64,000 nt of DNA from the IMG/VR virus record IMGVR_UViG_3300037418_001469. One strand, given 5' to 3'. Positions within the stretch are counted from its first letter, which is position 1; the number at the start of each line of letters is the position of its first letter. A program made the position numbers and the translations under genes. Source of the DNA: a virus. Below the pieces are notes generated by a model. The model saw only the letters and a program-made list of their open reading frames with translations, was not told the origin of the DNA and searched no databases. Below, in pieces: positions 4,335-43,028 of the stretch.

Positions 4335-4822
4335 TGAAGATAATTTACACAAACAAAGGCAATAAGATTTTCGTTGATGATGATGTATATGAAGAACTTA
4401 ATCAGCATGTGTGGTGTTTAAATAATTATGGCTATGCGTATAGAAAGACTAAAGTAGACGAACCCTATTCGCAAAGTCACATATTAATGCACAGATATAT
4501 AGTAGGTGTTATTAATGACAGGTCGGTTGTGGTTGACCATGCCGACCACAATATATTGAACAATACGAGAGACAATCTTCGTATATGTAATCAATCAAAA
4601 AATGGCATGAATCAAAAGTTATCCACAAGGAATACAACTGGATTCAAAGGAGTTCATTATAGAAAAGATAGAGGAAAATACCAAGCCTATATCCAACACA
4701 AAGGAAAGAAGACTAATTTAGGAACATATGATACAGCAGAAGAGGCAGGTTTAGCTTACAATAGTAAAGCATTAGAACTATTCGGTGAGTTTGCCCTGCT
4801 GAATAATATAGAGGTGATATAA
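4334..4822 (+). mobile_element. Free-standing HNH-AP2 homing endonuclease between thyA and dfrA
   Basis: MHRYI..VDHADHNILNNTRDNLR HNH motif plus NTTGFKGV..LGTYDTAEEAGLAYN AP2 domain; overlapping stop/start on both sides. Confidence 0.88.
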
Positions 4823-7021: not shown

Positions 7022-7603
7022 ATGACACCAAGAGAAGTGAAGGCACATATACAGCAAGAGTCGATGGAATATCAAGAGATTATTCCTGCCCACATAGATA
7101 GAGATGAATCATCACAGTACGAGTTCAACAAAGCTAAAAAGTTCCTTACTAAAGCATTTGGTGGTAAGCGTTGTATCGTATGCGAAATGCGTGGAGAAAA
7201 GCCAATAGGCGCCATTGAATCCCACCATGTATTTGAATGGAGTCATTGGAATGATAATGACATGGAAATGGTAGAGACCACATTACGAGCATTATCACCT
7301 TTTATTCATGGAATATATATGATTAGCAAGGAGGATATTTTAGCAGGTAAAAAGATTCCTAGCTTATGGGAGCACCCTGAGTTAAGGAATAAGCCTTTTA
7401 CTTCACTAGACGACCCTAGAAATCAGTGGTTCTTATGTCACGCACATCACCAACAGTCTACTAACGAGCAGACAGAGAACGGTTATGATATTTTAGGTCT
7501 ACATAATGTACCTTTCCCTGAGTGGTTACAATACATGGGCTTACCGTCAGGCATAGTACCAGTAAGGCATGCAGTTAAAAAAATGGATAATAAAGTGAAA
7601 TAA
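7022..7603 (+). CDS. HNH-like Zn-binding protein
   Basis: CIVC..IESHH...NQWFLCHAHH...GLH. Confidence 0.5.
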   Translation: MTPREVKAHIQQESMEYQEIIPAHIDRDESSQYEFNKAKKFLTKAFGGKRCIVCEMRGEKPIGAIESHHVFEWSHWNDNDMEMVETTLRALSPFIHGIYMISKEDILAGKKIPSLWEHPELRNKPFTSLDDPRNQWFLCHAHHQQSTNEQTENGYDILGLHNVPFPEWLQYMGLPSGIVPVRHAVKKMDNKVK

Positions 7604-19904: not shown

Positions 19905-20302
19905 TTCAAAAAAGTTTTTAAAAAAGGTTGCATATTTTCCTACAACCTGCGTATAATGATAGTAGCATCACAATTGATAATCAAATAGCTTATTCTTCTC
20001 ACACCTTCTATCTAGTATAGAGGGGATGGACATAACGACGTTTTATAGTCAGGTGAATGTGAGAAAAAACTTTTTAAAAAAAGTGGAATAAAGTTCTTGA
20101 CTATCACATAAGCTATACTGTAAGATGATTATAGTACCACACTAACTTAATACGCTTTACCTTACAGGGATTGTCTCCCCTACATTAACCTTCTATATAG
20201 AGGGTATCTCCAAAAAGGCTTAGTAAGAAACTTAAAAAACTTTTTGGAAAGATTTTAAAATAACGCTTGACAGTTTAAAACTTAACCTTTACAATTAGGG
20301 TA
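19905..20302 (+). promoter_or_regulatory. Three tandem strong sigmaA promoters with A/T-tract UP elements
   Basis: TTGCAT-18-TATAAT (19928), TTGACT-18-TAAGAT (20097), TTGACA-17-TACAAT (20267); each preceded by AAAAA(G/C)TTTTT. Confidence 0.75.
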
Positions 20303-21260
20303 GCTTCAAAATTAACGCTTGACAGTGAATAAACAGGGTAGTGAGAAAAACCCTACTATATTGTTCATAAGTGGTAACAAGCAACCCACTATAAAAATAG
20401 GCTTGCATGAGTTCCTTGACAAGAAAATAGTTCAAAGAAGACTTACACCCTTCATGTTTTAAAGAGGGTTCGGGTCTTGTCTAACTGATACTCGCTGAAA
20501 AAGGTGATTCTTGCCTAATCTAAGTGAGTGCCAATGGGTTAGCTAATTAGTCAGATATCATGCTTGCATAGGTGATGGAAGATGTCCAAATTACAGGTGA
20601 AACTAAGGGTTTTTGACTTAGCAGGTTCTCTGGAAACGGGCTTGGTGAGTGGGTCAACAATAACCGCAATGACTAAAAGGTGGAACCCAAGCAATTCCGA
20701 GCAAAGCGACTTGATTCTAAGGTTACGAACTAGCTTGGATAGTAAGCTATACACCCCACACTGTATCACCTGAAAAGGTGGGCAGTCTGTGACTTAAAAG
20801 TAAGGGGTGAGAACTTGGCAAGGTTAGGCAGGGACGGGCGACAAGGGTAGCAAAGCGAATCTAAGAACTATTTGACAATACAGGTTAACTTAAAACTTTC
20901 TTAGGGAATATTTTATGTTTGTTGTTGAAAGTTGAAAGTTGAAAGGTTAACCGCTAAAAGTTGGGTATAGCATATCCAAGTGGGAAAAGTAACCATTCAC
21001 AATATGTGCGGTTACAATGTAGGATAGCGAGAGCGAATCCAAGGTATAGCAACCTATACCATAATTAAGGTTGTAAATTTCGGATTGTTAAGCAAGTCGA
21101 GTAGTCCAAACAATGAGTCCCTAGGGATTACCATTACAGGCACACTGAAAAAGGTTAGTCTCCTTATTAGGATAAACACTTTAGTAGGTTAGACTGTAAA
21201 GGCAAACAAGGTACTATACTCACTGGAGCACATGGTACGACTTGCTTGATTGAATCTGAT
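20302..21260 (+). ncRNA. Candidate large ornate ncRNA (~0.85-0.95 kb, GOLLD/ROOL size class)
   Basis: No credible ORF, raised GC, many nested helices with G-U pairs (20425-33/20865-73; 20508-21/20821-34; 21080-99/21238-59), repeated CUGAAAAG and GNRA-like loops. Confidence 0.72.
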
Positions 21261-21328
21261 ACGGTTTTATTCGGGGGTTTATCCCTTGAATAATGCTAAT
21301 AGTCGAATATAAAACTATAACTTAGGAG

Positions 21329-21649
21329 TTGTTGAAATTGAGAAAAATTGCTAACGATACAAAATTAAACTTTAAGAAAGATTTATCTAACATTGAATTA
21401 ATGGGAATTGAACATATCTTAAACTCGTTTGAAACTGATATTGAATCTGAGGTATTAATGGCTGAGGATTACGGTTTAGCTTATACGAGTTCATCATCAT
21501 ATGCTATGTATAATGTTACGGAACATGTAGTATTTGATGGTTTAACTGTTAGTCACTTCTCTATTACTGATAATGATATGCTTATTATGGTATGTACTGA
21601 TGATGATGAGAATAATCATTGTTATGAAATAGAGGGTTCGGATTACTAG
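21329..21649 (+). CDS. Acidic hypothetical protein inside stalk 1
   Basis: AGGAG RBS with TTG start; D/E-rich. Confidence 0.6.
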   Translation: MLKLRKIANDTKLNFKKDLSNIELMGIEHILNSFETDIESEVLMAEDYGLAYTSSSSYAMYNVTEHVVFDGLTVSHFSITDNDMLIMVCTDDDENNHCYEIEGSDY

Positions 21650-21765
21650 TCCTTTACCTTTTCCGCCAAATTAAAATCTAACATTCGACTGTTAGTGTTA
21701 TTCAAGGGATAACATTATCCTCTGAATAATGGTTATAGTCGAAAAATAAATCATAATTAGAAAGG

Positions 21766-22216
21766 TTGTTGAATATGTTTAACAGTAATCAAATTAAAGT
21801 AGTTAGGGAATATTTAGAAAAACGTTTTAATACAATGAATGTAACGTATATTAAATCAGGTGCTAGTGGCATACTATTCCAAGTGAATGAATTTGAGTTA
21901 GTAGTTATTATTGATACTGATTATAATGTTACATTGGGTTATACAAAATATGATGAAGTTCACACTATTAAAGGTGGTTACTCATTAGGGTTATTAGAAA
22001 ATGCATTGAAAGAAACTGAATGTGCTTATGCTTAAATGGTTAGTGATGATTACAGTCTTATTTTTGATTCTTGTACTTGGGTTGGTTAATGATGCATTAT
22101 CAGTATACAGTGTTACTCATTATATAGATGTTGTGTTTGTATCTACTATAGGAGTTGCTTTACTATTTGTTTATGTTGTATCTGTATTTGTTACAGTGTT
22201 GATTCACAAAAATTAA
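21766..22216 (+). CDS. Two hypothetical proteins inside stalk 2 (21766-22035; 22022-22216, 2 TM)
   Basis: ORF track, RBS, hydrophobicity. Confidence 0.55.
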
Positions 22217-22350
22217 TTCCTTTCTTTTCCCGCCCGCAAAATTTAAGTTCTAAACTTTAAATTAAAATCATATAATCGACTATAACCGTTATTCAGTGGA
22301 TAACATTCACTGTTAGAATCAAAAAATAAATCATAGGAGCGTGCTTATTT

Positions 22351-23664
22351 ATGAAAAAATCAGATTTTCTAGAAATGAAAGTTCAAAAATCAGGGGAGTC
22401 TTTAAAGGGAATTGCAAGTCTTATTACTCAGTCTTTTGAGGTTGAAGCAATGACAAAAAGTGATGAAGATGTTTTATCTCGCAAATTAGATTCAATTGGC
22501 AAAGGTTTAGCAAGGGATAAAAGTATTAACGATGGTAATGGTTGGAATGATGATGTACACCATGATGTTTCATTAACTTCTTATACTCATGATAATGGTG
22601 GTCTATATGGTACTGAAACAAGTTCTTCACCTATTGATATCTGCAATTGGTTTGAATTGAAAAACTATTTAAATCAAATATTAGACACTTATTTACAAGC
22701 TAGTGGGAATAAAGTTCATTTTACTGTTAGAGGTTCTATGCATGTACACAATACATTATCATATACTTATGATGAGGATTACAACCTTCTTAGTGCTGTA
22801 AAATTAGACATTAACGGTGTCTACCATAATGTGGCTCGTTTTATCCTTAAGTTTATGCCCGTTATGAAATGGTTGGTAATGACTGATAGAAAAGGTGCTC
22901 GTGGGGTTCGTGGTTCATCATATGGTGATAAATTTGATAATGATAGATTATTTTCTTGGTGGTCTGAATATGAGGGTTCTATAGATACTGATAGCACATA
23001 CAGACTAACTCATTTTGATAGAAACTCATGTTTTCGAGTTATGCAAGCTAATTGCTTACACTATGAAAATCGCTTAGCAGATTGTAGTTTTAACGCTACA
23101 CACATTGGTATGTGGTTGTCAATCAATCGTGCAATAACTCTTATGGGTATTGATTTTTCAAGGAATGGTTATTTGTTCAATATCAATGGTGATGATGTAG
23201 AATTATCTAGAGACTTGATGTATCAACATTCTAGAGGTTATAAATACGTTGGCAAAGAATCTATCGAAATGCTATATAAACAGTTTGTTGGATATCTTGC
23301 AAAATATCTTAAAATTATTGGTTCACTAGAAACTATTGAAGTGATGGATAAGTTAATCAAGTGTCCTATTTCAGAATACTTAAATGAGAACAATATTACT
23401 GAGGAATATTGGAATCTAGAGATTATAGAAAAAGTGTTTAATACTAGGAATCGTGCTAGTGATACGGTTCTAAGAGATAGATTCTTAGAAGGTATCAAGG
23501 CTATGCTTATTCCTAATGCGGATAGCTTGAACGACTTCTTAGATAATACTGCAAGTTATCTAGAGGTAGAATCTAAAAAGGTTAAATCATTATATCAGAT
23601 GTTCAAACGTGAAAACGTGGATATTGAGTTCTTAGGTGGTAGACTTGTATATCTTGGGGATTAA
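22351..23664 (+). CDS. Putative COOH-NH2 amidoligase, divergent paralog 1
   Basis: SFEVE, HDVSL, ETSSSP, GSMHVH, HYENRL; C-terminal extension shared with 39658. Confidence 0.62.
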   Translation: MKKSDFLEMKVQKSGESLKGIASLITQSFEVEAMTKSDEDVLSRKLDSIGKGLARDKSINDGNGWNDDVHHDVSLTSYTHDNGGLYGTETSSSPIDICNWFELKNYLNQILDTYLQASGNKVHFTVRGSMHVHNTLSYTYDEDYNLLSAVKLDINGVYHNVARFILKFMPVMKWLVMTDRKGARGVRGSSYGDKFDNDRLFSWWSEYEGSIDTDSTYRLTHFDRNSCFRVMQANCLHYENRLADCSFNATHIGMWLSINRAITLMGIDFSRNGYLFNINGDDVELSRDLMYQHSRGYKYVGKESIEMLYKQFVGYLAKYLKIIGSLETIEVMDKLIKCPISEYLNENNITEEYWNLEIIEKVFNTRNRASDTVLRDRFLEGIKAMLIPNADSLNDFLDNTASYLEVESKKVKSLYQMFKRENVDIEFLGGRLVYLGD

Positions 23665-23726
23665 TTTCCCCTTGGTATTAAGTTATAAGTTTAAAGTTTA
23701 AAATTATATCGTAGGGGGAATTAATA

Positions 23727-24326
23727 ATGAAAGTGTCCGTACAAGTAGCTAGGGAGCAAATGAGAATCTTACTAGGTGCAGGTGCAGAATTTAATTGGAG
23801 AGAGAACTATATTCATGGCACATGGTTAGAGTTTAATATTAAATCATGCTATGCGGATAGAGTAGAAACAATTTGTGATATGATTAGTAATGATTGGGGA
23901 TATGAATTAGACAGAAAAAATAATATTGCTACATTCTCATTATTCGATTTTAATAAGGAGAATACAGTGGAAAAGAAACAACTAATTAAGGTTCGCCAAT
24001 GGTTAACTAGACGAGATAGCAACCCTATTCCAATGCGTACTATGGAATGTGTAGTAGTTAGAGAGACAGCTAGAGCAATTCAGGTAAAGTTGAAGGGACA
24101 TTTAAATCCATCTAGTAATTGCAATCATTGTGGTAGAAAATTAACGCACCCTGTAAGTTTAATGTATGGGCTTGGTCCTATTTGTGGTGGGCATTTTCAT
24201 ATTAACCCTTGTGATAATGAGCAACAATTGAAGGCTCGTTATGATGATATGAAGCGTAAAATGGAAAGTGTAACATGGGAAGGTTGGATACCTAGAAGTC
24301 AAATAGAATCTATGCAAACAGTATAA
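23727..24326 (+). CDS. DUF6011-like Zn-finger protein
   Basis: CNHCGRKLTHPVSLMYGLGPIC. Confidence 0.7.
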   Translation: MKVSVQVAREQMRILLGAGAEFNWRENYIHGTWLEFNIKSCYADRVETICDMISNDWGYELDRKNNIATFSLFDFNKENTVEKKQLIKVRQWLTRRDSNPIPMRTMECVVVRETARAIQVKLKGHLNPSSNCNHCGRKLTHPVSLMYGLGPICGGHFHINPCDNEQQLKARYDDMKRKMESVTWEGWIPRSQIESMQTV

Positions 24327-24710
24327 TATTATATCCTACACTGCCTATAATCTAAAAATAGATTATGGGCAGGAATGTTATAATATTAAATTATAAGGAG
24401 GTGGTAATATGATGACTAGGGATGAATTAATTGCGGAATTATTAAAATTGTCACCCAATGATTGTGTAATTGGTGTCTATGTGGAAAGTATTGATAGTGT
24501 TGTTGATGTTACTGGTGTTGAAATGTATAACGGTGAAATTAATATTAGGGTTGATTATTAAATTATAAGGAGTGGGAAGAATGAGAGACTTATCACATTT
24601 AAGCAAAGAGGAATTACTAAAATTACTATCTGTTATTTATGATAATGCTGATTTTTTCGGTAATGATATGACCACTGGTATTATCTGTAGGGCAGAGGAG
24701 GAAATTAAAA

Positions 24711-26184: not shown

Positions 26185-26768
26185 TGACTAGTGGGTTTGG
26201 TGTTATAATAGCGATTGTTGAATTGTTTCTATATTGTAGCTTAGTAGCTTGTATTGGCTATCTTTTAAACAGATTCTTTCCGCCATTCAAAAAATTAGTT
26301 AACTTTCTTGTTAATGCTGATAAATAATAATTGACAGTTTAAAGCTGATAGTATAATATAGAGTTATACCAACTAGAGGAGAGTGTTAGATTGAGAACGT
26401 ATAATCTATTATTAAAGCGTAAAGGTATTATCTGTACTGATACAGTTACTACTAACCCTATCGGTCTAATATTATATCGTTGGAAGAATAGACTTTGGGA
26501 AGTTACGGTTATTGAATAGTAATTGGTGCTTACAATCTGATTTTAGATTGTAAGTAGTCGTGACTAGTCAATGAGTATAGTCAAATATTATATTAGGAGG
26601 TAAGATATGTATATTGTCTCATTTACAGATAATAGCGGAAAAGTGCATGAACATGAGCATGAGTATGAAAGCACTGCTAAATTATTTATTGAACACATGA
26701 AAGAATTTTATCCTAATAGTAATCCTGTTTTAAAAATCAAAAATTAAATTATAAGGGGCGTGGGGAAA

Positions 26769-27188
26769 ATGATTAAAGTAGAAAATAATACTGTAAGTGT
26801 TAATGGGATATCTATTCAATTTGATTCTACAACAAGTCTTAATAGTTTTTTATTAGACTATGTTTCTAAGCATGAGCAGGTTGTTTCGCAAGTTGAAAAG
26901 ATTATTATAGAAAAACCTTTTAATTATAAGCTACAAATGTTAATTGATACTTGTGGGTATATTGAAATTGAAGAACTTGGTTTATCAGTTCGTTCTTTCA
27001 ATTGTTTAAAGCGTGCAGGAATTAATATAATTAAAGATGTTCTAGAATTAGATTATGAGCGTATAATTAGAGTAAGAAACTTAGGGATTAGAAGTATTAG
27101 AGAAATTGAAAGTGTGGTAAATGAGTTCACACGTTCTAATTATATTAATTGGTCTGAATCTTTACCGCCCGTTGCAGTCGAAAATTAA
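26769..27188 (+). CDS. Protein carrying an RNA polymerase alpha-subunit C-terminal domain
   Basis: IEELGLSVRSFNCLKRAGIN...VRNLGIRSIREI, close to bacterial alpha-CTD. Confidence 0.85.
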   Translation: MIKVENNTVSVNGISIQFDSTTSLNSFLLDYVSKHEQVVSQVEKIIIEKPFNYKLQMLIDTCGYIEIEELGLSVRSFNCLKRAGINIIKDVLELDYERIIRVRNLGIRSIREIESVVNEFTRSNYINWSESLPPVAVEN

Positions 27189-27530
27189 ATCTTAAGGAGT
27201 GAGTAGCTTTGGAGAAGAAGGAAATGCAAGGATTTAAAGGAGGAAGCAAAATGAGATTAGTTAAGATGACAATTCATTGGATAATGATGAAGTGGTATTT
27301 TCAATTATGGCATAAGGTTTCAAGAATGACCAATCAAAAATGGCATGACAAATTTTACTATTATGCAGAAACATTGATAAAAATGTGAAAAAACGGGTAC
27401 CAAAAAATTTTAAAAAATTTGGTACCTTTTACTTTTTGACTCGTAAAGTTTTAAGTTGACCATTGACAATTGTTTTCTTATGGTGTATGCTTAGGATAGT
27501 CAAACAAACTAAATTTAAGGAGTGGTTGTA

Positions 27531-28748
27531 ATGTGTAATGATAAAAAACGTACTTATGGAATCGAACTAGAGGGTTATACAGATGAGAATATTAGGGGTA
27601 ATCATATAGGTCAGGGTTGGAAAGTTATTGAAGATGGTTCTTTAAATGATGGAACAGATGAATGTTGTGATTGTGATGGTAGAGGTCACAATGAATGTTA
27701 TCGTTGTGATGGTAGAGGTAATGTTGATTGTGATGATTGTTGCGGTAGTGGTGAAGTTCCTTGCGGTGAGTGTGATTGCACAGGATATATAGAATGCCAT
27801 CATTGTGATGGTGAAGGCGGTAGTTGGGTATCTGATGATGAAGGTGATGAAGATTGGGTAGAATGTGAACATTGTGAAGGCAATAAAACATTAGATTGTA
27901 ATGATTGTAATGGTAGTGGGTATACTACCTGTGAAACTTGTGATGGTGACGGTGAAATTGAATGTGAATCTTGTGATGGTAATGGAAGTTACGAGTGTGA
28001 ATCTTGTGATGGTCGTGGTTCTCATGGTGATGGTGAATACTATGGTGTTGAATGTGTGAGTGGTATCTTAACAGAAGGTGATTATGAGCCTATTAATCAT
28101 ATATTTGACTATATCGAACGCTATGATTGGACTATTGAAGATGATTGCGGTACTCATGTTCATATTGGCGGTGATGATTTAAATGAGAAAGACTTGTCTA
28201 AACTTTATATTCTTGCTAATATTCTTGAGCCTGCTATTTATGGTTCACTTCCTAGTAATCGTATTAATGGCACTTATGCAAAACACACACAGAGAGATAT
28301 GGCAGAATATTTAATTGGAAAAGGAGAGGATATTACATTACAACAATTAGCTGATTATTATTATGGATATAGCGTTAGATTAAACGGACACTTTCAAAAA
28401 TATGATAGCGCTAGATATTATGGTTTAAATTTAAACTCTTGGTTCTATCGTAAGACAATTGAGTTTAGATACTTTGAAGGTGCTATCAATAGAGAGAAAG
28501 CTAATAATTGGATAGAGTTGTGCATTAAGCTAGTAGACTTTGCAAAATATACTACCTTTGAGCAGTTAATGGTTATAGGCAAAGACTTCTATTTGATAGA
28601 TAACCTACAAGAATTACTAGACAAAACAGAAGAATTATTAGGTTTAGAGTATAATATTGGAGCATATAGTAACTACGCATATCAGGAATCAAAGCATAAT
28701 GTAGCAAGTCAATTCAGAGATACTCACATTATTACTCGTGCAGTATAA
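27531..28748 (+). CDS. Putative amidoligase paralog 2 with a DnaJ-like Zn-finger insertion
   Basis: TYGIELE, EDGSL, ten CxxCxGxG-type repeats, GVECVS, CGTHVH, RYYGLN, TIEFRYF. Confidence 0.82.
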   Translation: MCNDKKRTYGIELEGYTDENIRGNHIGQGWKVIEDGSLNDGTDECCDCDGRGHNECYRCDGRGNVDCDDCCGSGEVPCGECDCTGYIECHHCDGEGGSWVSDDEGDEDWVECEHCEGNKTLDCNDCNGSGYTTCETCDGDGEIECESCDGNGSYECESCDGRGSHGDGEYYGVECVSGILTEGDYEPINHIFDYIERYDWTIEDDCGTHVHIGGDDLNEKDLSKLYILANILEPAIYGSLPSNRINGTYAKHTQRDMAEYLIGKGEDITLQQLADYYYGYSVRLNGHFQKYDSARYYGLNLNSWFYRKTIEFRYFEGAINREKANNWIELCIKLVDFAKYTTFEQLMVIGKDFYLIDNLQELLDKTEELLGLEYNIGAYSNYAYQESKHNVASQFRDTHIITRAV

Positions 28749-28881
28749 TAATTGACTATTAGGTGAAGGGGGGATTGTCCCCCTTTCCTAGTATAATCTA
28801 AAATTAAACTATTAAAAATCCTTGTTATTTACTAGGAGGTTTAGTATAATATGTATATACATTAAATTAGGAGGTAGAATT

Positions 28882-29274
28882 ATGGAAAGTAATTATCGTA
28901 CTATTGAGGTGAAGTTGGGCAATTATATTAAGAGATTTGAAATGAGAGATACTTATATTGGTACTTTTGTAGTGGACAATAAGCTATTTAATGTTATTGG
29001 CACTCAACATTCAATGGAAAGGCTAGACGAACGTAACATAAACAAGTATCATATTTTGTCTAGCATTGTCGGATTAGGTGAAAAACTTGCGACACACAAT
29101 AATAGTGGTAAGCACATTATTATTAGTGACGAAAAGAAAGATATCTCTACTATCTTTACAATCGAAAATTTCACTGTAGTATTAATTACTGTGTTGGACA
29201 GAGGACAGATGTATATTTCTCCCAATGTTACACATAAGCGGACAGTCATTGAAACGTATGATAATGTTGGTTAA
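28882..29274 (+). CDS. Possible BECR/DUF4258-like ribonuclease-fold protein
   Basis: TQHSMERLDERNI and C-terminal VLITV strand. Confidence 0.4.
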   Translation: MESNYRTIEVKLGNYIKRFEMRDTYIGTFVVDNKLFNVIGTQHSMERLDERNINKYHILSSIVGLGEKLATHNNSGKHIIISDEKKDISTIFTIENFTVVLITVLDRGQMYISPNVTHKRTVIETYDNVG

Positions 29275-29376
29275 TTAATTAGTGATTGGTTGCCTAGAGT
29301 TGATTATTTGATTCTAGGCAAGGGGTGACTAATTAAAAACTAGTCTAAAATTAGATTACAAGGGAGATTGATAGGT

Positions 29377-30093
29377 ATGACATTTAAAATTGAGGGACAA
29401 TGTGTAGCTTGTGAAAATATGGCAGTAGATGAAGTACTAGATGAGACTATGGTAGAATATTTGAGTGTGTGTGACGATTGCTACAAAGAAGTATTTATCA
29501 ATGTTGCTAATAGTGGGGAGCAATATTTCTTTGAGTGGGCAGAAGAAATGTATGGTACGGAAAAAGCAGTAGGACTAACAAGTGAAATTTTTGGTCAAGA
29601 GTCTACTATTAGATTAGGAGTTGAAGATATGGGTAAAAAGCGGAAAAGAAAAGAAAATGAAAGAATGATAACTATGTTTACTTATGGCATATTAAAATAT
29701 CCTTACAACATTAAACGTGAAGGCGGTATAAATATAGTCGAAAATTCGTTTATAAGAGGACATAAAATGCATCTTTATGCTAGTTCGTTCCCTATTACTA
29801 GAATGACTAATGATGATACAGATTTTGTTTATGGCACACTATTTGAAGTACCTGAAAGTCAAGTATTATACTCTTATGATTTTACAGAAGGATATAACCC
29901 TAAAGCACACCCTTCTATGAATATGTATAATAGAATAGAGGTTGAAGTAGTTAAGCCTAATGGTGAAATTGTAATTGCTAATATGTATTATGCTAATCAA
30001 AGACAGTTTGCCCAACATTTGAATAATAACACATGGATTCCTACAGGAAATTTTGATGATAGACAAATGGCTAAGTCATACAAAAGGAAGTGA
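29377..30093 (+). CDS. Gamma-glutamylcyclotransferase (AIG2-like); possible internal start at ~29628
   Basis: FTYGILK, VYGTLFEV, YDFTEGY, YNRIEV, ANMYY. Confidence 0.8.
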   Translation: MTFKIEGQCVACENMAVDEVLDETMVEYLSVCDDCYKEVFINVANSGEQYFFEWAEEMYGTEKAVGLTSEIFGQESTIRLGVEDMGKKRKRKENERMITMFTYGILKYPYNIKREGGINIVENSFIRGHKMHLYASSFPITRMTNDDTDFVYGTLFEVPESQVLYSYDFTEGYNPKAHPSMNMYNRIEVEVVKPNGEIVIANMYYANQRQFAQHLNNNTWIPTGNFDDRQMAKSYKRK

Positions 30094-30336
30094 TGCTATG
30101 AAAGATTGTCTAGGTCTTTTCTTACTTGGACTTGGTGGAATATATTTATTCTTCTTATTGATTGTTTGTAACCTATAAAATTAAACTATAAACTTTTAGT
30201 TGACAATTGAAAGTGAGGTATGCTATGATTGAGGTAGCTAATACAGTAGTGATTGCAGTTTGTCTTTGTTGGTTCGGTTCTTATATTGTAATAATAGACT
30301 ATAAGGCAAACAAAAAATTGAAAGAGGGTAGATAAT

Positions 30337-31784
30337 ATGTCAATTAAATTAAACATTGGCGATTCTGTTTATGTAGATAACAATGAAACGTTTATAGTCG
30401 AAAAAAGAACTGTAGGGTATGCACTTGTTGGTTTAAGCGGTGAGACAGTAGCTAAATTTCCTCACCTTGCACAAATACCACATTATCTCAATAGCATATA
30501 TGATACAGTGGAAATAATCAAAAATAAGACTGTAAGTGAGAAAACTAAGGTAGAATATAGTATTATAACAGATGAATTAGAATATGTCGATGGCTTTGAT
30601 GATACTATCTATATGGCACTACAGAACATTGGCAAGATTAAAGGAATGAACATAGAAAAAATGTATCGTGAAGGTATTCTTACTAATGAGATGTTAGCTG
30701 AGATTCGTGTTTTTGTAGTCGAATATTTGAATAAAGTTACAGATAATACTATTGACCTTTCTCCACCTGAAAAAGAATACAAATTAGGTGATGAAGTAAC
30801 CGTATATTATGAAGATACTGTTCAAAATGCTACTATTATATGGTTGTCTGATGAAGAGAAGTATGGTCTATTACTTTACGGTGAGTTTACAGTCGAATAT
30901 TCTACTGCTAATGCAGATTGTGATAGTCCAACTAATTATATCTTGTGGCTACAAAGAAACTATGGTTTAAATATAGAGTAGGAAATTAAACTATTGGAGG
31001 AGATAGTATGAGTATTGAAAATCAGAAAAGATTTTATATTGACTTCAATTCAATTAGAATGTGCTATCCATATGAAATAAGTAAAAGAATTAATGATTTT
31101 GGAGTGTTAGAACAATATAAAGACAAGAAATATACAATGGCAGAGATAAATCAAATAGTTGCAGATTTAATAATGAAGAATCCATATATTAGTAATTCTA
31201 TGTTCATTAAAATTTGTGTTATGAGTGGCATGGGTTATCATCATATATTAGACATTAAGAACTATAATTATAGCAAGCAAGAGCGAACAGATAAAGAGGT
31301 TAGGTTTCAATATTAGAGTAGAATTTTCTACTCTTGGGATTTCAATTTAGTATTATACCTTAAGGAGTGATTACTATGGTCAAATATTCTACCAATATAG
31401 GTGTTACTGTTGTTTGTCTTTCTCCTATTGAAAAAGGTGATGTTATTAATGTTGTTGACAAGAAAGGAAATTCTGTTACTAAGTATGTGGAAAGTATTAA
31501 AGATAATCACTTAGAACTAGAAAGTTACCATATTCAATCAGTCATAATCAAACATTAAACTTTAAGGAGGTGATAACATGTCTCACATAGGAGATGGTAA
31601 GTTGTTTGCTATCGGTGATGCTTTGATGCAATTACAAAAACGCACATGGTGTCATATATCAAGTCGTAGAGAGACAGAAATTCAATTAATTCTTGAGATT
31701 GTTCATAAATTAGATTATAACGTAGAAGTGGACACAACATTAGATGGAGTAACTCGAATCTTTATATCGAATTACCTTGACTAA
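30337..31784 (+). CDS. Hypothetical proteins (30337-30981, 31008-31316, ~31376-31558, 31578-31784)
   Basis: ORF track with RBSs. Confidence 0.55.
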
Positions 31785-31914
31785 AATGTTAAGGTTGTGG
31801 TAAGATATAATAGTAAACAGTAAGGGATAATGCACCTAGAAAATAAAAAAACAGTTGACAAATGAAAGTTGAATGTGGTAAGATTAAACTAACAAATATT
31901 AAGGAGTGTTGTAA

Positions 31915-32814
31915 ATGAATGAAAAGTTAAAGGTGACACGCACATTAGGATTTGAAATTGAGTGCTTTGCAGATGTACCTTCTCGAACAGATAGTTGGGG
32001 TGACACATATGTTGATTATGATGATGTATCTATTCGTAATTGCGAAGTTAGTACTGATGGTTCATTATATGGAGGTAGCGGTACTCCATTAGAAGCAAAG
32101 ACAGACCCTATTAAAAATCTTAATATTGTAGAAGAAGTTTATAAAGAGTTAAGCGGAATGGATATGAACGTAAATAAAACCTGTGGTCTACATATTCATG
32201 TAGATACTAGCGACTACACAATTGAGGATAAAGCAAAGTTGTTACGTTTTGGAGCAGGAATTGAATTACTAATGTTCGCATTAGTTGACAAGTCTCGTCA
32301 AGGAAACGAATATACAGAAAAACTTCATAAAGGTTGGAGAAAGTTATTTCGTTCCAATTTTATGACGCAAAGTATTCCTTTTGATTCTTTTAACAATTTT
32401 AGTCAATTAGAAAGATATATACAGAATAACTCTACACATAGAGATGCTAGACATATTTGGAATGGTAGATACCAATGGTTAAATGCAGTAGTTAGTCATT
32501 GTCCTACCGCAGAGTTTAGAATCTTTAGCGCTACTACTGATTATAAACAAGCACAAAAGTTTGGCATGTTAGCCTATCATATCGTAGAAACAATCAAAAA
32601 TTCTACTATAGAACAAGTAAGGTTCATTATTCAATCTATCTATCAAAGTCAATCAGTGGACGAAATGCTTGACAGACTATTCGACTCTATTGGATTAGAC
32701 GGTGAGTTCAGACCTGAAATTTTAAATGATAAAATGGCTGAATATATTGACAATAAGTTCTGCAAGCCTATTCGTGAGCGTGAATTAGTAGGCGGTGAGC
32801 AACGAGCAGTTTAA
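31915..32814 (+). CDS. Putative amidoligase paralog 3
   Basis: TLGFEIE, TDGSL, EAKTDP, CGLHIH, RYQWLN, TAEFRIF. Confidence 0.85.
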   Translation: MNEKLKVTRTLGFEIECFADVPSRTDSWGDTYVDYDDVSIRNCEVSTDGSLYGGSGTPLEAKTDPIKNLNIVEEVYKELSGMDMNVNKTCGLHIHVDTSDYTIEDKAKLLRFGAGIELLMFALVDKSRQGNEYTEKLHKGWRKLFRSNFMTQSIPFDSFNNFSQLERYIQNNSTHRDARHIWNGRYQWLNAVVSHCPTAEFRIFSATTDYKQAQKFGMLAYHIVETIKNSTIEQVRFIIQSIYQSQSVDEMLDRLFDSIGLDGEFRPEILNDKMAEYIDNKFCKPIRERELVGGEQRAV

Positions 32815-32860
32815 AAAAGTTGTTGACAGTTGAAAGTTGATGTGCTAAGATAGTATTACA

Positions 32861-33007
32861 GTAAGCAATCCTCTAGGGAGGGACGGACACCCTCCTCTCA
32901 TGAAGCCCATCCTCCTTGAGTAAGAGGAAAATTATTTTAAATTGGTAAGGGGACTACAGGAGATTGACTGACTATCTATCTCTTGCCTTGCCTAGAGGAT
33001 TGCTTAC
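32861..33007 (+). ncRNA. Structured ~147-nt leader or sRNA
   Basis: Perfect 17-bp closing stem just downstream of the promoter at 32823, with internal hairpins. Confidence 0.55.
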
Positions 33008-33040
33008 AATAAAATAATAGACTATTGGAGGTTATTGTGA

Positions 33041-33940
33041 ATGAGAATGAAGAAGGACTTATTAAAAGGTATTGAACTAGGTAGAACTATTGGAGTAGAA
33101 GTAGAAGGTTACACTGGAATGTATCGTTCAATGGTTAACAACGGGGTAAGACATAGTTCAACTAAATATGATGGCAGTCTAGGACAGTCTAGAGCTAGTC
33201 AAGGTATTGAAGTAGTAACTAAGCCTATTAAACAACTAGATTTGTTAGATGAAGTATTTGAGGATATCACTAAGTATCAGTGGAATGTTGGCAGAGGAAA
33301 GGCAGGCACTCATGTACATGTTGATGCTAGAGACTACAACGTATTAGACAGAATTAAGATGGCAGTATTTATGAATCTGATTGAAAAGGCTATGTTTTTA
33401 ATGGTGAAAAAGTCTAGATGGAGTCGCAACAGCTATGGAAGAAATACTTATTGCAGACCTGTTAGTGGTGGTTGGAAAGACTTATTAAATAAGCTAAATA
33501 CGGACTATCCTGAATTTGACATAACCAAATACGGAAATATCGGACCTTTGCAGTATGATATTATTAACAAACGTAATCTGAACTATAACAGACTAATCAC
33601 TCCTAATACTATTCGCTATCAGTTTGTGAATATATGGTCATCTAGCCACAATACAATTGAATTTAGAATCTTTCATGCTATCCGTTCGGCAAAAGATGCT
33701 AAGCTATTCTCATTAATGGCATACCACCTAGTAGAAATAGTCAAACATTCTACTCTAGAACACTTAGAGTATCTTGCTGATGAAATCATGAATCAATCAA
33801 CTAGTGCTGAAAACATGCTAGAAAGATTTTCTCAAGCTATTGGACTTGATTTTATTCCCAAGATTTACAATGCTGATTTAAAAGCTATAATAGATAGAGA
33901 TAAGCGTGTCGGTGCAAGAACTTCATTTGTTGCGGTATAA
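33041..33940 (+). CDS. Putative amidoligase paralog 4
   Basis: TIGVEVE, YDGSL, GIEVVTKP, AGTHVH, RYQFVN, TIEFRIF. Confidence 0.85.
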   Translation: MRMKKDLLKGIELGRTIGVEVEGYTGMYRSMVNNGVRHSSTKYDGSLGQSRASQGIEVVTKPIKQLDLLDEVFEDITKYQWNVGRGKAGTHVHVDARDYNVLDRIKMAVFMNLIEKAMFLMVKKSRWSRNSYGRNTYCRPVSGGWKDLLNKLNTDYPEFDITKYGNIGPLQYDIINKRNLNYNRLITPNTIRYQFVNIWSSSHNTIEFRIFHAIRSAKDAKLFSLMAYHLVEIVKHSTLEHLEYLADEIMNQSTSAENMLERFSQAIGLDFIPKIYNADLKAIIDRDKRVGARTSFVAV

Positions 33941-34718
33941 TATTAAACTCTACCCTTCGGGGTAGGGTTAGGGAACTAAATTATAAAATTAAATTATAAG
34001 AAAGGTAGTGGACACCATGAACGAACAGATGTATAATAGGTATGTACAGTTGATTAATAGACGCTACAAATATGATAACACTAATATGAAAAGATATGGG
34101 CTAGTGCTAAAACTTATGGCTTGGCAATACAATGTAGGTAGAAACAAAGAGGAGGTAATGTAAAATGTACGTTATTCAAAACAGACAAAAGGGTGAGGGC
34201 TTCTATTGTGGAATCTTGTATCATGGTGAGGTTGGTTATTATACTAGTTTTTTTCCAAACCTCAACTTCAAAGAGGTAAAGAAATATGACACTAAAGAAC
34301 AAGCTAAATTCGACTTCTATTATCTAGTGGACATTTGGAATGTTGACCTTGGATTCCTTGAAATAGTACCTGTTGAATTGGTGGTAAAAACAGATGAATA
34401 ATGACTATATACTATTGTTCATGATGATAGCACTTCTTGTAGGTTCATTAATATATAGGGTGTGGAAAGACGAACAAGATTTTAAGAAGGCACACAATAA
34501 GCGTAAAAAGAAAAAGTTTTGGATATAATACAATAATAGACTTTAAGGAGGTGATTCTTATGGCAATTAATCTTAAGAAAAAACCTTTCGCAAATTTAAC
34601 TAAGAAAGTTTTAAAAAAGTAGTTGACAGTTGATAACTGATATGATACAATTAAGAAGTGGTAAGGGAGAGGTTATTCTCTCCCACAAAAAAATCTAAAA
34701 TAAAAGGATGATGTGAAT

Positions 34719-34736
34719 ATGTGTGGAATCAAGTAG
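34719..34736 (+). pseudogene. Truncated GATase 5' end (MCGIK*)
   Basis: Follows a duplicate of the promoter, leader and RBS of gene 35416. Confidence 0.65.
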
Positions 34737-34812
34737 AGCATAAAGTTTCCTCCAATGAGAAGAATATATAATAACGTGGAATTAAATATTATATTCTTAG
34801 GAGGAATTAGAA

Positions 34813-35319
34813 ATGAGCAAAGGTAAACAGTTAAAAAGCAAAGAAGAAGTAGTCGAAAGATTTTGGTCTTATGTAGATAAGGCAGATGGTTGTTGGAATT
34901 GGTTAGGAAGTAAGAATAACAAAGGCTATGGTCAATATCCAACGGTAGTTAAGCATGAAATATTCGACTCTAAGCTAGTACACAGAATAAGCTACTATCT
35001 TAATAACGGTGCTTATGATAGAAAATTAGATGTTTGTCATAAGTGTGATAATCCTTCATGTGTAAATCCTAGTCATTTATTCTTAGGTACTAGGTCTGAA
35101 AACATGATAGATTGTGTAGAAAAAGATAGGCATGATACTAGTAAGAAAGCTAAAGGCGAAAGAAGTGGTAGAGCAAAACTAGATTGGACTAAGGTTAGAG
35201 AGATTAGAGAGAAGTATGCTAAGGGTAATACTTCAACTAGAAAGTTAGCTACAGAATATGGTGTAGACAACAAGGCTATACATGCTATAGTTCAAAACAG
35301 AACTTGGATTGAAAAATAA
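34813..35319 (+). mobile_element. HNH homing endonuclease with C-terminal HTH
   Basis: CWNWLG...GYG, VHRISY, VCHKCDNPSCVNPSHLFLGTRSEN. Confidence 0.9.
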
Positions 35320-35415
35320 CAGTTGACAATTGAAAGTTGATATGGTAAACTTAAGAAGTAGTGAGGGGGCTAACCTCCTCCTACTAAAAAATCTAAAATA
35401 AAAGGATGATGTGGA

Positions 35416-36654
35416 ATGTGCGGTATAAACGGAATGGTTTTCTTAAAAGGTGTAAAACGTGATGCTCAAATGATGGCTAAAGTACGCTTTATCTTTGATG
35501 AATTAATGGTTGAGACTATGGATAGGGGCGAACATGCTACTGGATTAGCTAGCTTTAAGCGTGATGGAAGTTACGAATTTCATAAGAAAAATATCAATGC
35601 AGATAAAATGACTACAGAAGATGAAAAATATCGTGAAATTGTTGCTAACTTTGACGGTGAAGATACTAGTGTAGTAATCGCTCATACTCGCTACATGACT
35701 CAAGGAACAGCAACAAACATGGATAATAATCACCCATTTGATATTGGCAATATCGTCGGACTACATAATGGTTCGGCAAAGAATGACAATATTCTATTCA
35801 ATGAATATAAAGATAAGTTTACTCGTATTGGTCAAGTTGACAGTGAAATTGTGTTTCAATTAATTAATCACTATAACCAAGATGATATTACATTAAAAGG
35901 CTTAACAAGTGCATTGGAGGATACTAAGTTAAGAGGACTATTTGCACTAGCTTTTGTCCACAAGAACAATCCTAATATGTTACACTTAGTTAAGCAAGAA
36001 AAACCTATGTACATTGCTTATTGGAAAGAGGCAGGAATTGTTATTTTCAACTCGATTGACGACTACATTATCAAGGCTTTCCGTAAATTAGAGCGTATAG
36101 GATTCTCATTCGGACTAAAAGACACCAAGCAAAGTGTAGAGATTAAGAAAGTTACTGATGATAGATACTTCACTGTTAATGCTGATGCTGAAACAGTAGC
36201 AGATGCTATTAGTGATGAAGTTCGTTTGTATATCGAATCTTCTTCTTACACTTATTACAAAAGTGGTGTAACAACTACAACTACTACCACTAATAAGACC
36301 ACTAAGGCAACTGTTGAAGGTAAGCGTGAAAAAGTAACTGCTACAGATAGCAAAGGTTTAGTGTTGCAAGGTGAAATTGACACTGCTACAGGTGAGGTTA
36401 TTATTTGGTCTAATGATGATATTAATGATGCTGATGATGGTAGTGGTCTAAATGATGTTGAGGAATTGTCTTGCTTTGAGTGTAATGAATTAATCACAGA
36501 AACAGATATAGATGCTAGCTACAATCGTGACAATCCAAAAGACGAGTGCATTTGTTTCGATTGCTACACTGAAATCATGAACACATATGTAAATGATATG
36601 CTCGATGAAAGAAAGGAAGAATCTGTTGATTGCGATGGTCAAAAGATAGGCTAA
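35416..36654 (+). CDS. Class II (Ntn) glutamine amidotransferase 1
   Basis: N-terminal MCGI, RGEHATG, HTRYMTQG, NNHPF, HNG, VDSE. Confidence 0.9.
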   Translation: MCGINGMVFLKGVKRDAQMMAKVRFIFDELMVETMDRGEHATGLASFKRDGSYEFHKKNINADKMTTEDEKYREIVANFDGEDTSVVIAHTRYMTQGTATNMDNNHPFDIGNIVGLHNGSAKNDNILFNEYKDKFTRIGQVDSEIVFQLINHYNQDDITLKGLTSALEDTKLRGLFALAFVHKNNPNMLHLVKQEKPMYIAYWKEAGIVIFNSIDDYIIKAFRKLERIGFSFGLKDTKQSVEIKKVTDDRYFTVNADAETVADAISDEVRLYIESSSYTYYKSGVTTTTTTTNKTTKATVEGKREKVTATDSKGLVLQGEIDTATGEVIIWSNDDINDADDGSGLNDVEELSCFECNELITETDIDASYNRDNPKDECICFDCYTEIMNTYVNDMLDERKEESVDCDGQKIG

Positions 36655-36712
36655 TGTGGAGGGAGTAATCCTTCCTTTGGGATTTAAAATTATACTATAA
36701 AGAGGTGGTGCT

Positions 36713-37933
36713 ATGATACACTTCCATAAGTACAAAGAAGTTGATAGGTACTTAATGTTTACAGGTGAAGATGCAGTTATCTATAAGTGTGAAAAATGCA
36801 ACAAAGAAAAGGTTAAATACACATTAGAGACTTATATTGGTTTGAAAGATGCACTACCGTATAAAGAGTGGTTAAAATCTAAAAATATATCATAAGGAGT
36901 GGTGTTTATGAAATGGATAGCCTTAGTTAAAATAACAGATTGGCAAATGTTACATTCATGGCATAGCGGAAGTTGTGACACATACAAGTCTAAAGCTAAC
37001 TTGGAAACAAAAGAACAAGCAGAAGAATTTATTAATGAAGTGGAAAAACTTTATGAAAGTCATTACAATATCCATCGTAGCGACAGTGATAAATATAGAT
37101 TAAAACCATGTATTCTAAGCTATGATGAATCTCAAAGCGAGAATGTGGAGAACTTCTTTAGATACATGTAATCTAAAATTAAACTATAAGGAGTGTTGAA
37201 TATGATATTAGAGAATAGGTTTGGTTTATTTGTAGACGATAAGAAAATAATTATTGAAACTAATTGTGATGAAGAAGTTTTTGAAAAAGTTGTTAAATTG
37301 GTTGTTGACCATGCTATGTACTATAACATAGAACAAGTGCTTGATGTAATTAAATCATTAGGTTATGAAGCTGAGTATCTTGATGATAGCACTAATAAAG
37401 ATTTTGATTTTTAATCTAAAATTATACTATAAGGAGTGCGTGATATGATGGAGTTTACTTATAAGATGAATATATTTGGAGAAAATGACAGCTATATGAT
37501 ACAAACAGATTGTCCACTTGATACATTCAGAAAGGCAGTAGATTTCGTGAGATGCGTAAAAGATTATGATGGTTATACATTGTTAGAGGTACTAAAAGTG
37601 ACAGGTTATAATGCTGAATTTTTTGAGCCTGATAATATTACTGGAACATTTAGTTTTTAATCTAAAATTAAACTATAAGGAGTTGATAATATGACTTTAA
37701 GAGAGATAATTAAAAATCAAATATTAGATTCTACAAATGAACTAAATGTAGAACTAAGTAATGAAGAACTAAGGATTGCAATAGCAGGAGTTGAACATTG
37801 TGTCAGTGAATGTATGGCTGATTCAGTAAGTGATGCAATTTCAGGTGTTCTTTATGATAGAAAATTAGATTCTAATTTCCCACAAGATATGCCTGATTCA
37901 TTTAAAAATTTCATAAAAGAAAGGAGCAAATAA
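36713..37933 (+). CDS. Small hypothetical proteins, including paralogs ~37202-37414 and ~37445-37660
   Basis: Bounded by near-identical TAATCTAAAATTA(A/T)ACTATAAGGAGT at 37169, 37412, 37658. Confidence 0.6.
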
Positions 37934-38006
37934 AAATGACTTTTAAAATAACTGTTGACAATACAAAACTGATACTGTATGATGTTATTAAAGGAGGAAA
38001 TACAAC

Positions 38007-38270
38007 ATGAACAACATGACATTCGCAGATTATATCAAGATTAAACGTGCAGAAAAGAATCTTTCAAGAAGTGAAATGGCAAGGAGAGCAGGCTTTACTC
38101 CCCAATATGCTATGGATATTGAAAGAGGTAATATGATACCTACAGAAGATAAAATTGAAAGCCTTGTTAATGTTCTTGAATTAGATGAAAGATTAGCTTT
38201 TCAATTAGCTGACAAAATTCCTTTAAGAATATATGAGCAAGCTAAACAGAAATTCTTTGGTGAGGAGTGA
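38007..38270 (+). CDS. XRE-family HTH regulator
   Basis: RAEKNLSRSEMARRAGFTPQYAMDIERG; own promoter at 37955. Confidence 0.85.
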   Translation: MNNMTFADYIKIKRAEKNLSRSEMARRAGFTPQYAMDIERGNMIPTEDKIESLVNVLELDERLAFQLADKIPLRIYEQAKQKFFGEE

Positions 38271-38274
38271 TTAA

Positions 38275-39644
38275 ATGCCTGTATCATTGGAAAAAGATTT
38301 TCCATTTCGATTAGAGCCACAAGTAATATGTAGTTGCGGTAAAATTATCTATGAAATAGATACAATGTTTTGCTCAGGTTGTGGTGATGTAACATGTGAG
38401 AATTGCTACACTGATTGTTTTGATTGCGGTAAGATGTATTGTAGTAATTGCTCTGAAAACACTTCACAATGCCTAAGATGTAACATAAACAGTAATATAA
38501 AAGTACCTGATGAAAAAGCATTTCTAGTTATCAATGGAGTTACAACACCAATTAAGAACAGTGCTTTTATGATACAAAAGACCTCACTTGTTAATGCTAG
38601 AGACATTAGGCTTACTCTTAATGGAGTAGAGTATAGATATACTTATCGTTCATTGACACAAACAGAAAATGATAAAATGATATATGATTACCACTTATAT
38701 TTTGAAGAAGTAAAACAAGTAGCGAATATGAACGATGAAGAATTTGCAATAAGTGTGAGAAATGCTTTAAGAAGTTTCAATGAAACGCATGGATTAGCAG
38801 ATGAATACGATGATTATAGCACATTAGGTTGGTGATAATATGTCAAAAGGGTACTATGATTGCTATGGATATTTTGCAATAGACCGTCCTCATAACACCT
38901 ACCCGATAAAAAATGTTGAGCGTCACTTAGAGTCTATTCTTTCACTAAAGAAGGGTGACGTTCTTAATCTTAAAGGAATTGGTGATTTACAAGTCATAAA
39001 TTTAAATATTGATGAATATAATTATCGTGACAAAGGTAAAGATTGTCTTTATCAAGAGATTGGAATAGTATGTATAACAATATAATATTAAACCTTAGTT
39101 GAGGGGGTTGTCTTGTGCTACATGTGGTTAGTATGAAAGTGTATGGCATAGATGAAAATGGTGACGATGAAAGGCAATGGTATAAGATTAAGAACGGGGA
39201 GGAAGTTCTTAATATGGAATTATGTAGCGGTGATAAAATTCTAATAGATGGCATAGGCAACCTAGAAATACTCGGACTTCACTACAAAAGCGAAGAAACA
39301 GGCACTCACCCTTACAAGTCACTAGAAATAACTTGTGGGTTAATTACAAACGAATAATTTAAAATTAAACTATAAAAAGTAGTTGACAGTTTAAAGTTGA
39401 CTATGTTATACTTAAAGTACAGTAAGCGAAGGAGCTGATTGGTATGATAGGTAATTCTAAATTCAACATGTGGACTATAACATATATAAACAAAAAAGGA
39501 TTACACTCAAATATTGAATGTCAGGATAAGGCAGAACTCTCTATTGAATTGTCTTACTTACGAGAAAACGGTCAAGATATGGAATACGTCAATGTATTTC
39601 CTCCAAAAAGTAACCTTACTTATGATGAATTATTAAACTATTAA
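38275..39644 (+). CDS. Hypothetical proteins (Cys-rich 38275-38835; paralogs 38840-39085 and ~39133-39357; 39444-39644)
   Basis: ORF track; shared GD..L.GIG.L.(V/I) motif. Confidence 0.55.
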
Positions 39645-39657
39645 GGAGTGTTGTTCA

Positions 39658-41780: not shown

Positions 41781-41875
41781 AAAATTTAAAAAAGTAGTTG
41801 ACAACTGACATTGGATAGTGTAATATAAAGGTATAGCAAAAAACAAAATTTGAAAAACGAAAGAGGTAATGTGAA

Positions 41876-42994: not shown

Positions 42995-43028
42995 TCTAAT
43001 AATATATCTTAAAGGAGCGTGTTGTGTA

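Follow-up and report, generated by a model that had tools for sequence, protein, structure and literature searches.

Processing stalks, in which the two ends of an RNA pair with each other, are textbook knowledge for rRNA and a few small RNAs, and, to our knowledge, the sites at which phage mRNAs are described as being processed are local hairpins. At the R-sites of phage T7, host RNase III separates the cistrons of the long early transcript, and the leftover half-helix stabilises the products; each site is a local hairpin that contains an internal loop, is cut once and protects the 3′ end alone. The sites of phages SP82 and SPO1 are local intercistronic stem-loops. Sites for Bs-RNase III in SP82 early mRNA were reportedly described by Panganiban and Whiteley in 1983 and by Mitra and Bechhofer in 1994, and the host-takeover module of SPO1 is said to have been described by Stewart in 1998. 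Processing of SP82 and SPO1 early mRNA by host RNase III is an established strategy (cited in PMC4838370 and PMC3896407), and the first of these sources names Bs-RNase III as the enzyme processing the early mRNA of the Bacillus phage SP82. In the B. subtilis scRNA precursor, the ends of which pair into a stem, Bs-RNase III likewise cuts on either side of that stem (PMC1935012).

Paired repeats are known in other settings as well. In transcripts of the Correia repeat-enclosed elements of Neisseria, the inverted repeats pair with each other and are bound or cleaved by RNase III, and the element ends can make promoters (PMC2649163). For the PeSL cassettes of T4-type phages, a role has been shown at the DNA level, in recombination and in mini-circles (PMC2839356, PMC4122927). 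A literature search, which covered mostly sources other than subscription journals, returned no description of chained or gene-enclosing stems round translated phage cistrons. The locus described below lies in a stretch of 64,000 nucleotides, here called the window, from an uncultured, large, low-GC phage of Bacillus type.

Two helices upstream of a conserved gene

The first helix, stalk A, is formed by positions 21279-21308 and 21683-21712 of the + strand, which pair over 30 positions (27 Watson-Crick and 3 G-U) on the basis of sequence and repeat finder, and it can be extended to 21279-21310 and 21681-21712 at the price of one A-C. After a linker of two nucleotides (CA, 21713-21714) on the same strand follows stalk B, where 21715-21742 pairs with 22276-22303 over 28 positions (26 Watson-Crick, one G-U and one U-U). 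The original prediction had given both pairings, the 2-nt spacing and the enclosed ORFs exactly to the base, and had correctly counted four of the five non-Watson-Crick positions as G-U, three of them in stalk A and one in stalk B, the remainder being the U-U. Each helix is built from the 5′ and 3′ flanks of the unit that it encloses and makes up at least about 20 bp of near-continuous dsRNA, as do rRNA-type stalks. A U-U/U-G position near the stalk base is conserved.

Stalks A and B are homologous (repeat families D2 and D4) and differ at three positions, each fully compensated in the partner arm, so that both cross-pairings, of the A 5′ arm with the B 3′ arm and of the A 3′ arm with the B 5′ arm, carry three mismatches and cognate pairing is clearly better. 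Duplex energies were −43.6 kcal/mol for stalk A and −39.3 kcal/mol for stalk B, against −26.9 kcal/mol for the non-cognate outer pairing and −25.6 kcal/mol for the local junction hairpin, which bears out the earlier claim of homologous stalks with compensating changes in each partner. The minimum free energy (MFE) fold of 21250-22345 holds 30 of the 32 pairs of the extended stalk A and 27 of the 28 of stalk B.

Of all long-range helices in the 64 kb, these two rank best. Apart from them, one shorter-range hairpin alone, at 32856-33012 (22-27 bp, 103-nt loop), reached at least 20 Watson-Crick pairs out of 22. When the best 28-nt antidiagonal window was scored in 100 dinucleotide shuffles of positions 20000-24000, the shuffle maxima were 26 pairs and 23 Watson-Crick pairs, against 28 and 26 in the real sequence, and both stalks exceeded all 100 shuffles.

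All enclosed genes are read on the + strand. Stalk A encloses an ORF listed as 21329-21649, a small early protein of the phrog_4874 family (cargo A), for which the probable start is TTG at 21338, 9 nt past AGGAG (21324-21328), giving a coding sequence of 21338-21649. Stalk B encloses two ORFs: cargo B1, a small protein at 21775-22035 (ATG at 21775; ORF listed from 21766), and cargo B2, a 64-aa hydrophobic ORF at 22022-22216 that overlaps the B1 stop, is specific to this phage and is an insertion relative to the orthologous units (alignment A2). In both window stalks the helix ends about 30 nt before the start codon and resumes 30-60 nt past the last stop, so that the unit lies in a closed loop.

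A pyrimidine tract ahead of both 3′ arms, noted originally as CCTTT..TTCC(C)GCC, was recovered directly past the cargo A stop codon (21650-21667, + strand) and past the cargo B2 stop codon (22218-22237, + strand). The motif recurs in relatives, but its position relative to the stalk varies. Abutting the 3′ arm of stalk B, within the loop, the sequence reads as a promoter-like element (TTCTAA-17 nt-TATAAT; 22248-22276, + strand). Beyond the last 3′ arm, the leader at 22304-22350 (+ strand) holds a decayed remnant resembling a 5′ arm (family D3) and a shared A-rich leader with a Shine-Dalgarno (SD) sequence. It belongs to a conserved 437-aa gene (22351-23664, + strand), the product of which matched no Pfam entry and no PHROG family.

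Upstream of the stalks, several consensus sigma-A-type promoters with A-tracts were located at about 19.6-20.3 kb, and about 0.9 kb without any ORF precedes the helices. A string resembling TGTTGTTGAAAG was seen by eye near 20925-20945 and is a candidate boxA. No terminator-like site was found by scanning the + strand from 19950 to 23656; thus the non-coding RNA, both stalks and the 437-aa gene can be one transcript. No Rfam family was returned at gathering thresholds, and no tRNA by ARAGORN. The original prediction likened the transcript to an rRNA operon, and this comparison holds for the layout, i.e. tandem promoters, a non-coding RNA of about 0.9 kb, stalks and no terminator. It fails for the enclosed product: in place of a stable non-coding RNA, the stalks enclose protein-coding genes that have homologues in other phages.

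Stalks in metagenomic relatives

Relatives were found by means of the 437-aa gene, which has 28 metagenomic homologues of 37-77% identity, and their contigs were scanned by one G-U-tolerant antidiagonal search. Eleven relatives (L120, L127-L129, L132, L133, L136-L140; 37-68% identity in the 437-aa gene) offered enough upstream DNA together with the cassette. All 11 had one or two stalks just upstream of the 437-aa homologue, 15 further stalks in sum, which brings the total to 17 stalks in 12 loci with the window included. The stalks were the highest-scoring long-range helices of the locus in 10 of the 11 relatives, and top-ranked in L140.

Two chained stalks were present in L120, L128, L133 and L139, with linkers of 0-8 nt, and a single stalk in L127, L129, L132, L136, L137, L138 and L140. 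The contigs of L132 and L140 begin with a cut 3′ arm, evidence of a further stalk. Chaining is seen in five loci, with one more case indicated by a cut arm. One homologue (L135) had no stalk within 4.5 kb upstream and another (L141) an orphan 3′ arm only, so the stalks are dispensable in some relatives. Among cultured phages, near and distant DNA searches against 50,697 records found relatives of neither the region nor the arms, and tblastn of the 437-aa protein against the same 50,697 records gave nothing. A 16-nt arm motif returned single chance matches only across IMG/VR, and a metagenome scan one short contig only.

The arms are alignable yet widely divergent: their pyrimidine-rich base and their distal end are conserved, and the middle is variable. 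The stalks count 21-33 paired positions each (mostly 26-32; 17 stalks). Over 14 stalks, almost all of the about 27 columns show 2-8 double-sided compensatory changes each. With RNAalifold, the long-range stalk was the dominant consensus structure of five whole orthologous stalk-B units, having 26 pairs, 14 of them with compensatory changes and none broken in the core. Cognate duplexes range from −20 to −54 kcal/mol, and MFE folds of the units largely recover the stalks (at least 26 of 27 pairs for roughly half of 14 stalks, with 20 of 32 as the minimum).

The interiors of the 17 stalks measure 313-1198 nt and contain ORFs. When enclosed gene content was compared across relatives, as had been suggested with the prediction, the cargo varied and its orientation was constant (17/17). 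The window, L136 and L138 each have a phrog_4874 gene inside a stalk, and in L132 such a gene lies ahead of the cut 3′ arm. Members of the cargo-B1 family occupy the orthologous stalk in the window and in L127, L129 and L132; the remaining cargo comprises a Zeta_toxin/AAA_33 kinase, DUF4258, DUF7447 and ORFans. Cargo A has homologues only in Bacillus phages (PJN02, FADO, 2S-4 and several more), and in PJN02, FADO and 2S-4 no stalk was found round the homologue, only a repeated palindromic motif containing TTGACA.

In most units the arms end about 19-48 nt ahead of the start codons (longer in two or three, including L128_1 and L137), and the 3′ arms begin about 30 nt or more past the stops, which places the arms just outside ribosome footprints. 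At the stalk base, a UCCCUU-type tract pairs with an SD-like AAGGGA-type tract. The SD itself lies outside the stalk, and several units have a pyrimidine tract in the 3′ UTR at a variable position. In mRNAs of the icaR type, an anti-SD in the 3′ UTR pairs with the SD of the same mRNA.

In five cases (L127, L129, L132, L133_2 and L140), the 3′ arm is immediately adjoined by a sigma-A promoter of consensus type (TTGACA, 17 nt, TAAGAT/TAAAAT/TAATAT); in L127, L129, L132 and L140, TTGACA-17-TAAGAT or TTGACA-17-TAAAAT occupies the orthologous position of 22248-22276. The window's own element is weaker, and was missing from the output of a simple promoter scan. To judge from their position, such promoters would start transcripts inside the 3′ arm without the partner arm; part of the downstream mRNA pool would therefore never form the stalk.

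The composition of the helices was compared after extending them under a criterion blind to the difference between G-U and A-C. The 17 stalks held 426 Watson-Crick pairs, 32 G-U, 2 A-C and 14 other mismatches. The excess of 32 G-U over 2 A-C is significant (p = 3e-8 if equal numbers are expected, p = 2e-4 if a 2:1 mutational bias is assumed). Some G-U pairs go back to common ancestry and 32 thus overstates the number of independent events, but the direction of the bias is unambiguous. Scans that allowed A-C in place of G-U found no comparable helices. The G-U excess and the arm-to-arm covariation together indicate selection on pairing in the sense RNA and not in DNA. The earlier argument that the G-U positions point to RNA rather than to DNA inversion has accordingly gained in weight, also through the co-orientation of the cargo units. 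The stalk pair is a real, conserved RNA feature, and long-range pairing at the RNA level, under selection, is strongly supported.

Probable processing by host RNase III and competing explanations

We regard the helices as long-range sense-RNA stalks of a rightward early operon, which host RNase III probably cuts into unit mRNAs with paired ends; the probability of this reading is roughly 60%. Transcription would start at the tandem sigma-A-type promoters and proceed through the ORF-free structured RNA into the stalks, where the near-perfect duplexes of 26-32 bp would be substrates for host RNase III. Staggered cuts would detach the upstream non-coding RNA and separate the cistron units, and the inner half of the stalk would remain on each excised mRNA, keeping its ends paired and out of reach of RNase J1 and 3′ exonucleases. 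The 3′ arm would become the leader of the next gene, through processing and internal initiation alike. The 5′ exonuclease RNase J1 dominates mRNA decay in Bacillota, which would make protection of both ends relevant there. Cleavage is suggested by the length and geometry of the duplexes and by the precedents of SP82 early mRNA and the scRNA precursor; on this basis, both RNase III cutting and stabilisation through paired ends are plausible. The B. subtilis enzyme is described as having narrow specificity (PMC4838370), so that a long duplex is not automatically a substrate. Also against this reading are the relatives that do without stalks, the downstream transcripts that would lack the 5′ arm, and the conserved pyrimidine tract and U-U/U-G position, for which it offers no account.

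No RNase III gene was found in the 88%-complete genome of one relative, and the enzyme would therefore be that of the host. The same genome held no RtcB and no RNA_ligase-family gene. Circularisable cassettes, raised as a possibility in the original prediction, found no support: besides the lack of these ligase genes in the relative, RNase III leaves 5′-P and 3′-OH on opposite strands at a helix end, which is not a nick.

The pairing could be read differently if the functional element were the junction hairpin formed by the A 3′ arm and the B 5′ arm, an RNase III site of SP82 or T7 type or a terminator, with the outer arms as leftover half-sites. SP82 and T7 sites are known as local hairpins, remnants resembling decayed 5′ arms do occur past the last 3′ arm, and the folding energy of the window junction is −25.6 to −27.1 kcal/mol (z = −5.5). 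However, this junction contains 3 mismatches and 4 G-U, against 27-30 pairs over 28-30 positions in the cognate helices, and it is respectable only in the window, where the two stalks are similar enough. In L120, L128 and L133 the junctions reach −12 to −18 kcal/mol, against −29 to −54 kcal/mol for the cognate duplexes and cognate sums of −72 to −90 kcal/mol, and the single-stalk loci L127, L129 and L138 are without any junction. A U-tract or terminator is absent, and the local fold of the last 3′ arm with its downstream remnant was no better than in shuffles. The weak junctions elsewhere and the junction-free loci show that the conserved fold is the gene-enclosing one; the preference for long-range pairing over a local hairpin, already expressed in the prediction, is upheld, and a junction hairpin as the functional element is very improbable. 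We find it equally hard to credit that the arms act as DNA-level repeats, i.e. as terminal inverted repeats (TIRs) of mobile cassettes or as recombination or inversion sites, with the RNA pairing incidental. Homologous stalks do hold different cargo among relatives, a DUF4258 gene is enclosed by a stalk in L128 but follows the 437-aa gene in L126 and L129, and a promoter and repeat at the cassette borders recall PeSL-mediated shuffling in T4-type phages (PMC2839356). Protein-bound TIRs, though, need no mirrored changes between arms, yet almost every column covaries, and the imbalance of G-U over A-C is strand-specific. All 17 cargo units share the operon orientation, only two copies occur in the 64 kb, at one locus, and no recombinase family matched any of the five adjacent window ORFs scanned; the marks of an invertible segment, both orientations and a recombinase nearby, are thus not seen. 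Recombination at the conserved arms, as a by-product and not as the selected function, may explain the cargo exchange.

More serious, if still unlikely, is the explanation that the helices stay uncut and serve as clamps that insulate the folding of cistrons, protect the transcript or hold start and stop codons close to each other. It draws on the identical pairing and conservation evidence as RNase III processing, and the position of the arms outside the ribosome footprints suits it. A variant takes the helix as possibly a timer, in which the 5′ arm, through its UCCCUU-type base, keeps the SD covered until the better-matched AAGGGA-type 3′ arm is transcribed. By itself, the 5′ arm can fold over the SD region in 4-5 of 13 units (L127, L129, L133_1 and window stalk B), which is weak evidence, as these folds reach −3 to −16 kcal/mol and are absent in most units. 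Against clamps in general, RNase III is common to all Bacillota, and uncut helices would mean that near-perfect duplexes of 26-32 bp evade it.

If host RNase III does cut the stalks, mRNAs protected at both ends would result. The proposed processing, if true, would supply synthetic operons with a natural, portable element for gene stabilisation and insulation, and would explain how a long early transcript composed of a non-coding RNA and many small takeover genes is kept modular despite cargo exchange. A bolder, rather doubtful extension is that a clade of uncultured large phages possesses a modular "gene-in-a-loop" expression socket, combining clamped mRNAs excised by RNase III, cargo swapped by recombination through the conserved sequences of arms and junctions, and transient masking of the ribosome-binding site (RBS) by the 5′ arm until transcription of the unit is complete. 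Such a socket, if real, would be an mRNA architecture undescribed for protein-coding genes of bacteria or phages.

Comparison with described systems

PeSL cassettes resemble the present locus in that conserved regulatory repeats and an early promoter border small, variable early genes, the cargo of which differs among relatives. A promoter adjoins the 3′ arm in five relatives, and weakly in the window. The PeSL stems, in contrast, are local terminator hairpins, whereas here the pairing spans the gene and no local terminator is present. Correia elements are short, non-coding and mobile, with many dispersed copies, unlike the gene-enclosing stalks of one locus with covarying arms. An assignment of the stalks to MITE or Correia-type elements was rejected, as the arm motif is no commoner outside the locus than in shuffles, only two stalks occur per 64 kb and the interiors hold ORFs.

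Separation of cistrons by host RNase III would be shared by T7 and the stalks, but the 5′ and 3′ ends of one T7 mRNA are not paired together. With SP82 and SPO1 the locus has in common an early polycistronic region of small genes, driven by host polymerase, in a large phage of Bacillus type. The stalks are not local intercistronic stem-loops of the SP82/SPO1 type; the three homologous SP82 sites are local, and a long-range scan of the SPO1 terminal redundancy found no gene-enclosing helix.

The closest functional analogues are the leader-trailer stalks of rRNA and the stem of the scRNA precursor. Like the stalks described here, those of 16S and 23S rRNA are long-range helices built from the flanks, follow each other in one transcript and exceed 20 bp of duplex, and rRNA operons also have strong tandem promoters and a long non-coding leader upstream. 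They differ in that the phage stalks enclose translated cistrons of 0.3-1.2 kb with varying cargo, and in that cutting here is a proposal. In the B. subtilis scRNA precursor, a stem likewise joins both ends of the released RNA, and the host is a Bacillus, as for the nearest cultured relatives of the window; its cargo, however, is a 271-nt non-coding RNA, and there is one stem and no chain. What sets the present locus apart, on this evidence, is that whole translated cistrons are individually enclosed by conserved, covarying helices of about 30 bp, often arranged head-to-tail.

Promoters and pyrimidine tracts at the stalks

In the metagenomic relatives, sigma-A consensus promoters abut the 3' arm of a gene-enclosing stalk in L127 (4893-4921), L129 (~3076-3105), L132 (~1108-1136), L133 (~4412-4441) and L140 (~371-400), and a weaker version is present in the window at the 3' arm of stalk B (22248-22276). 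In all of these loci the 3' arm starts exactly at the end of the promoter, and primary transcripts of the next gene would therefore begin within the arm.

A pyrimidine tract of the CTTTTCCCCGCC type was identified on the sense strand of the window at 21650-21667 and 22218-22237, and is also kept, every time on the sense strand, in the relatives' loci L120, L127, L128, L132, L133, L137 and L141. Its placement differs: the tract lies past the stop codon of the enclosed gene, ahead of the first 5' arm, or shortly past a 5' arm. An A-rich stretch and a promoter frequently come after it.

A candidate upstream RNA, and cassette differences in relatives

Between tandem promoters and stalk A, the window contains a stretch of ca. 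0.9 kb without ORFs (20302-21260). This stretch is kept in L127 (compare 4300-4420), where its hairpins are visibly compensated, and it returned no match in Rfam. The region is a candidate for a large structured RNA.

The cassette is absent from relative L141 (~1340-1440). At this position, the pyrimidine tract is found together with a TATAAT and a 3'-arm-like sequence that has no partner arm, all directly upstream of a 442-aa gene, and the locus looks like a deletion derivative. In L128, the stalk-enclosed genes encode a Zeta_toxin/AAA_33-like kinase (1455-1922) and a DUF4258 protein (2067-2318); L126 and L129 have their DUF4258 gene downstream of the homologue of the 437-aa gene (window 22351-23664) and within no stalk. 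The L128 homologue of cargo B1 (window 21775-22035) is located outside both stalks, flanked by copies of a 14-16 bp palindrome with the core GTTTCACGTGAAAC, which occurs in about five copies (~1075-1095, 1407-1422, 2365-2380, 2658-2678 and 3722-3742).

Other repeats and genes of the window

Apart from the stalks, the sole strict Watson-Crick helix in the 64-kb window is one of 22-27 bp with a 103-nt loop (32856-32882 / 32986-33012), which sits between the paralogous amidoligase-like genes 31915-32814 and 33041-33940. Additionally, an AT-rich box of the TTTAATATTAAAT type inside the DUF6011 gene, in its 5' part, pairs with a copy past the gene (23819-23847 / 24375-24403), and is kept in relatives (L127 6516-6536 / 7209-7229; L140 1975-1995 / 2848-2868). 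Many genes further downstream are preceded by related AATCTAAAATTA.. leaders.

The window also has a gene cluster (27522-45249 and 51942-53675) made up of several genes for amidoligase-like and glutamine-amidotransferase-like proteins, together with one clamp-loader-like gene and one for a nicotinamide phosphoribosyltransferase. ORF 26760-27188 is positioned where relatives carry a gene for an RNA polymerase alpha-CTD-like (PF03118) protein.

Early regions of cultured Bacillus phages

In the early region of the cultured Bacillus phages PJN02, FADO and 2S-4 (L121, L122 and L123), no gene-enclosing stalks were found around the homologue of cargo A (window ORF 21338-21649). The same region of these phages contains, between small genes, a repeated palindromic motif of the ACGTTGACAACG type with TTGACA.
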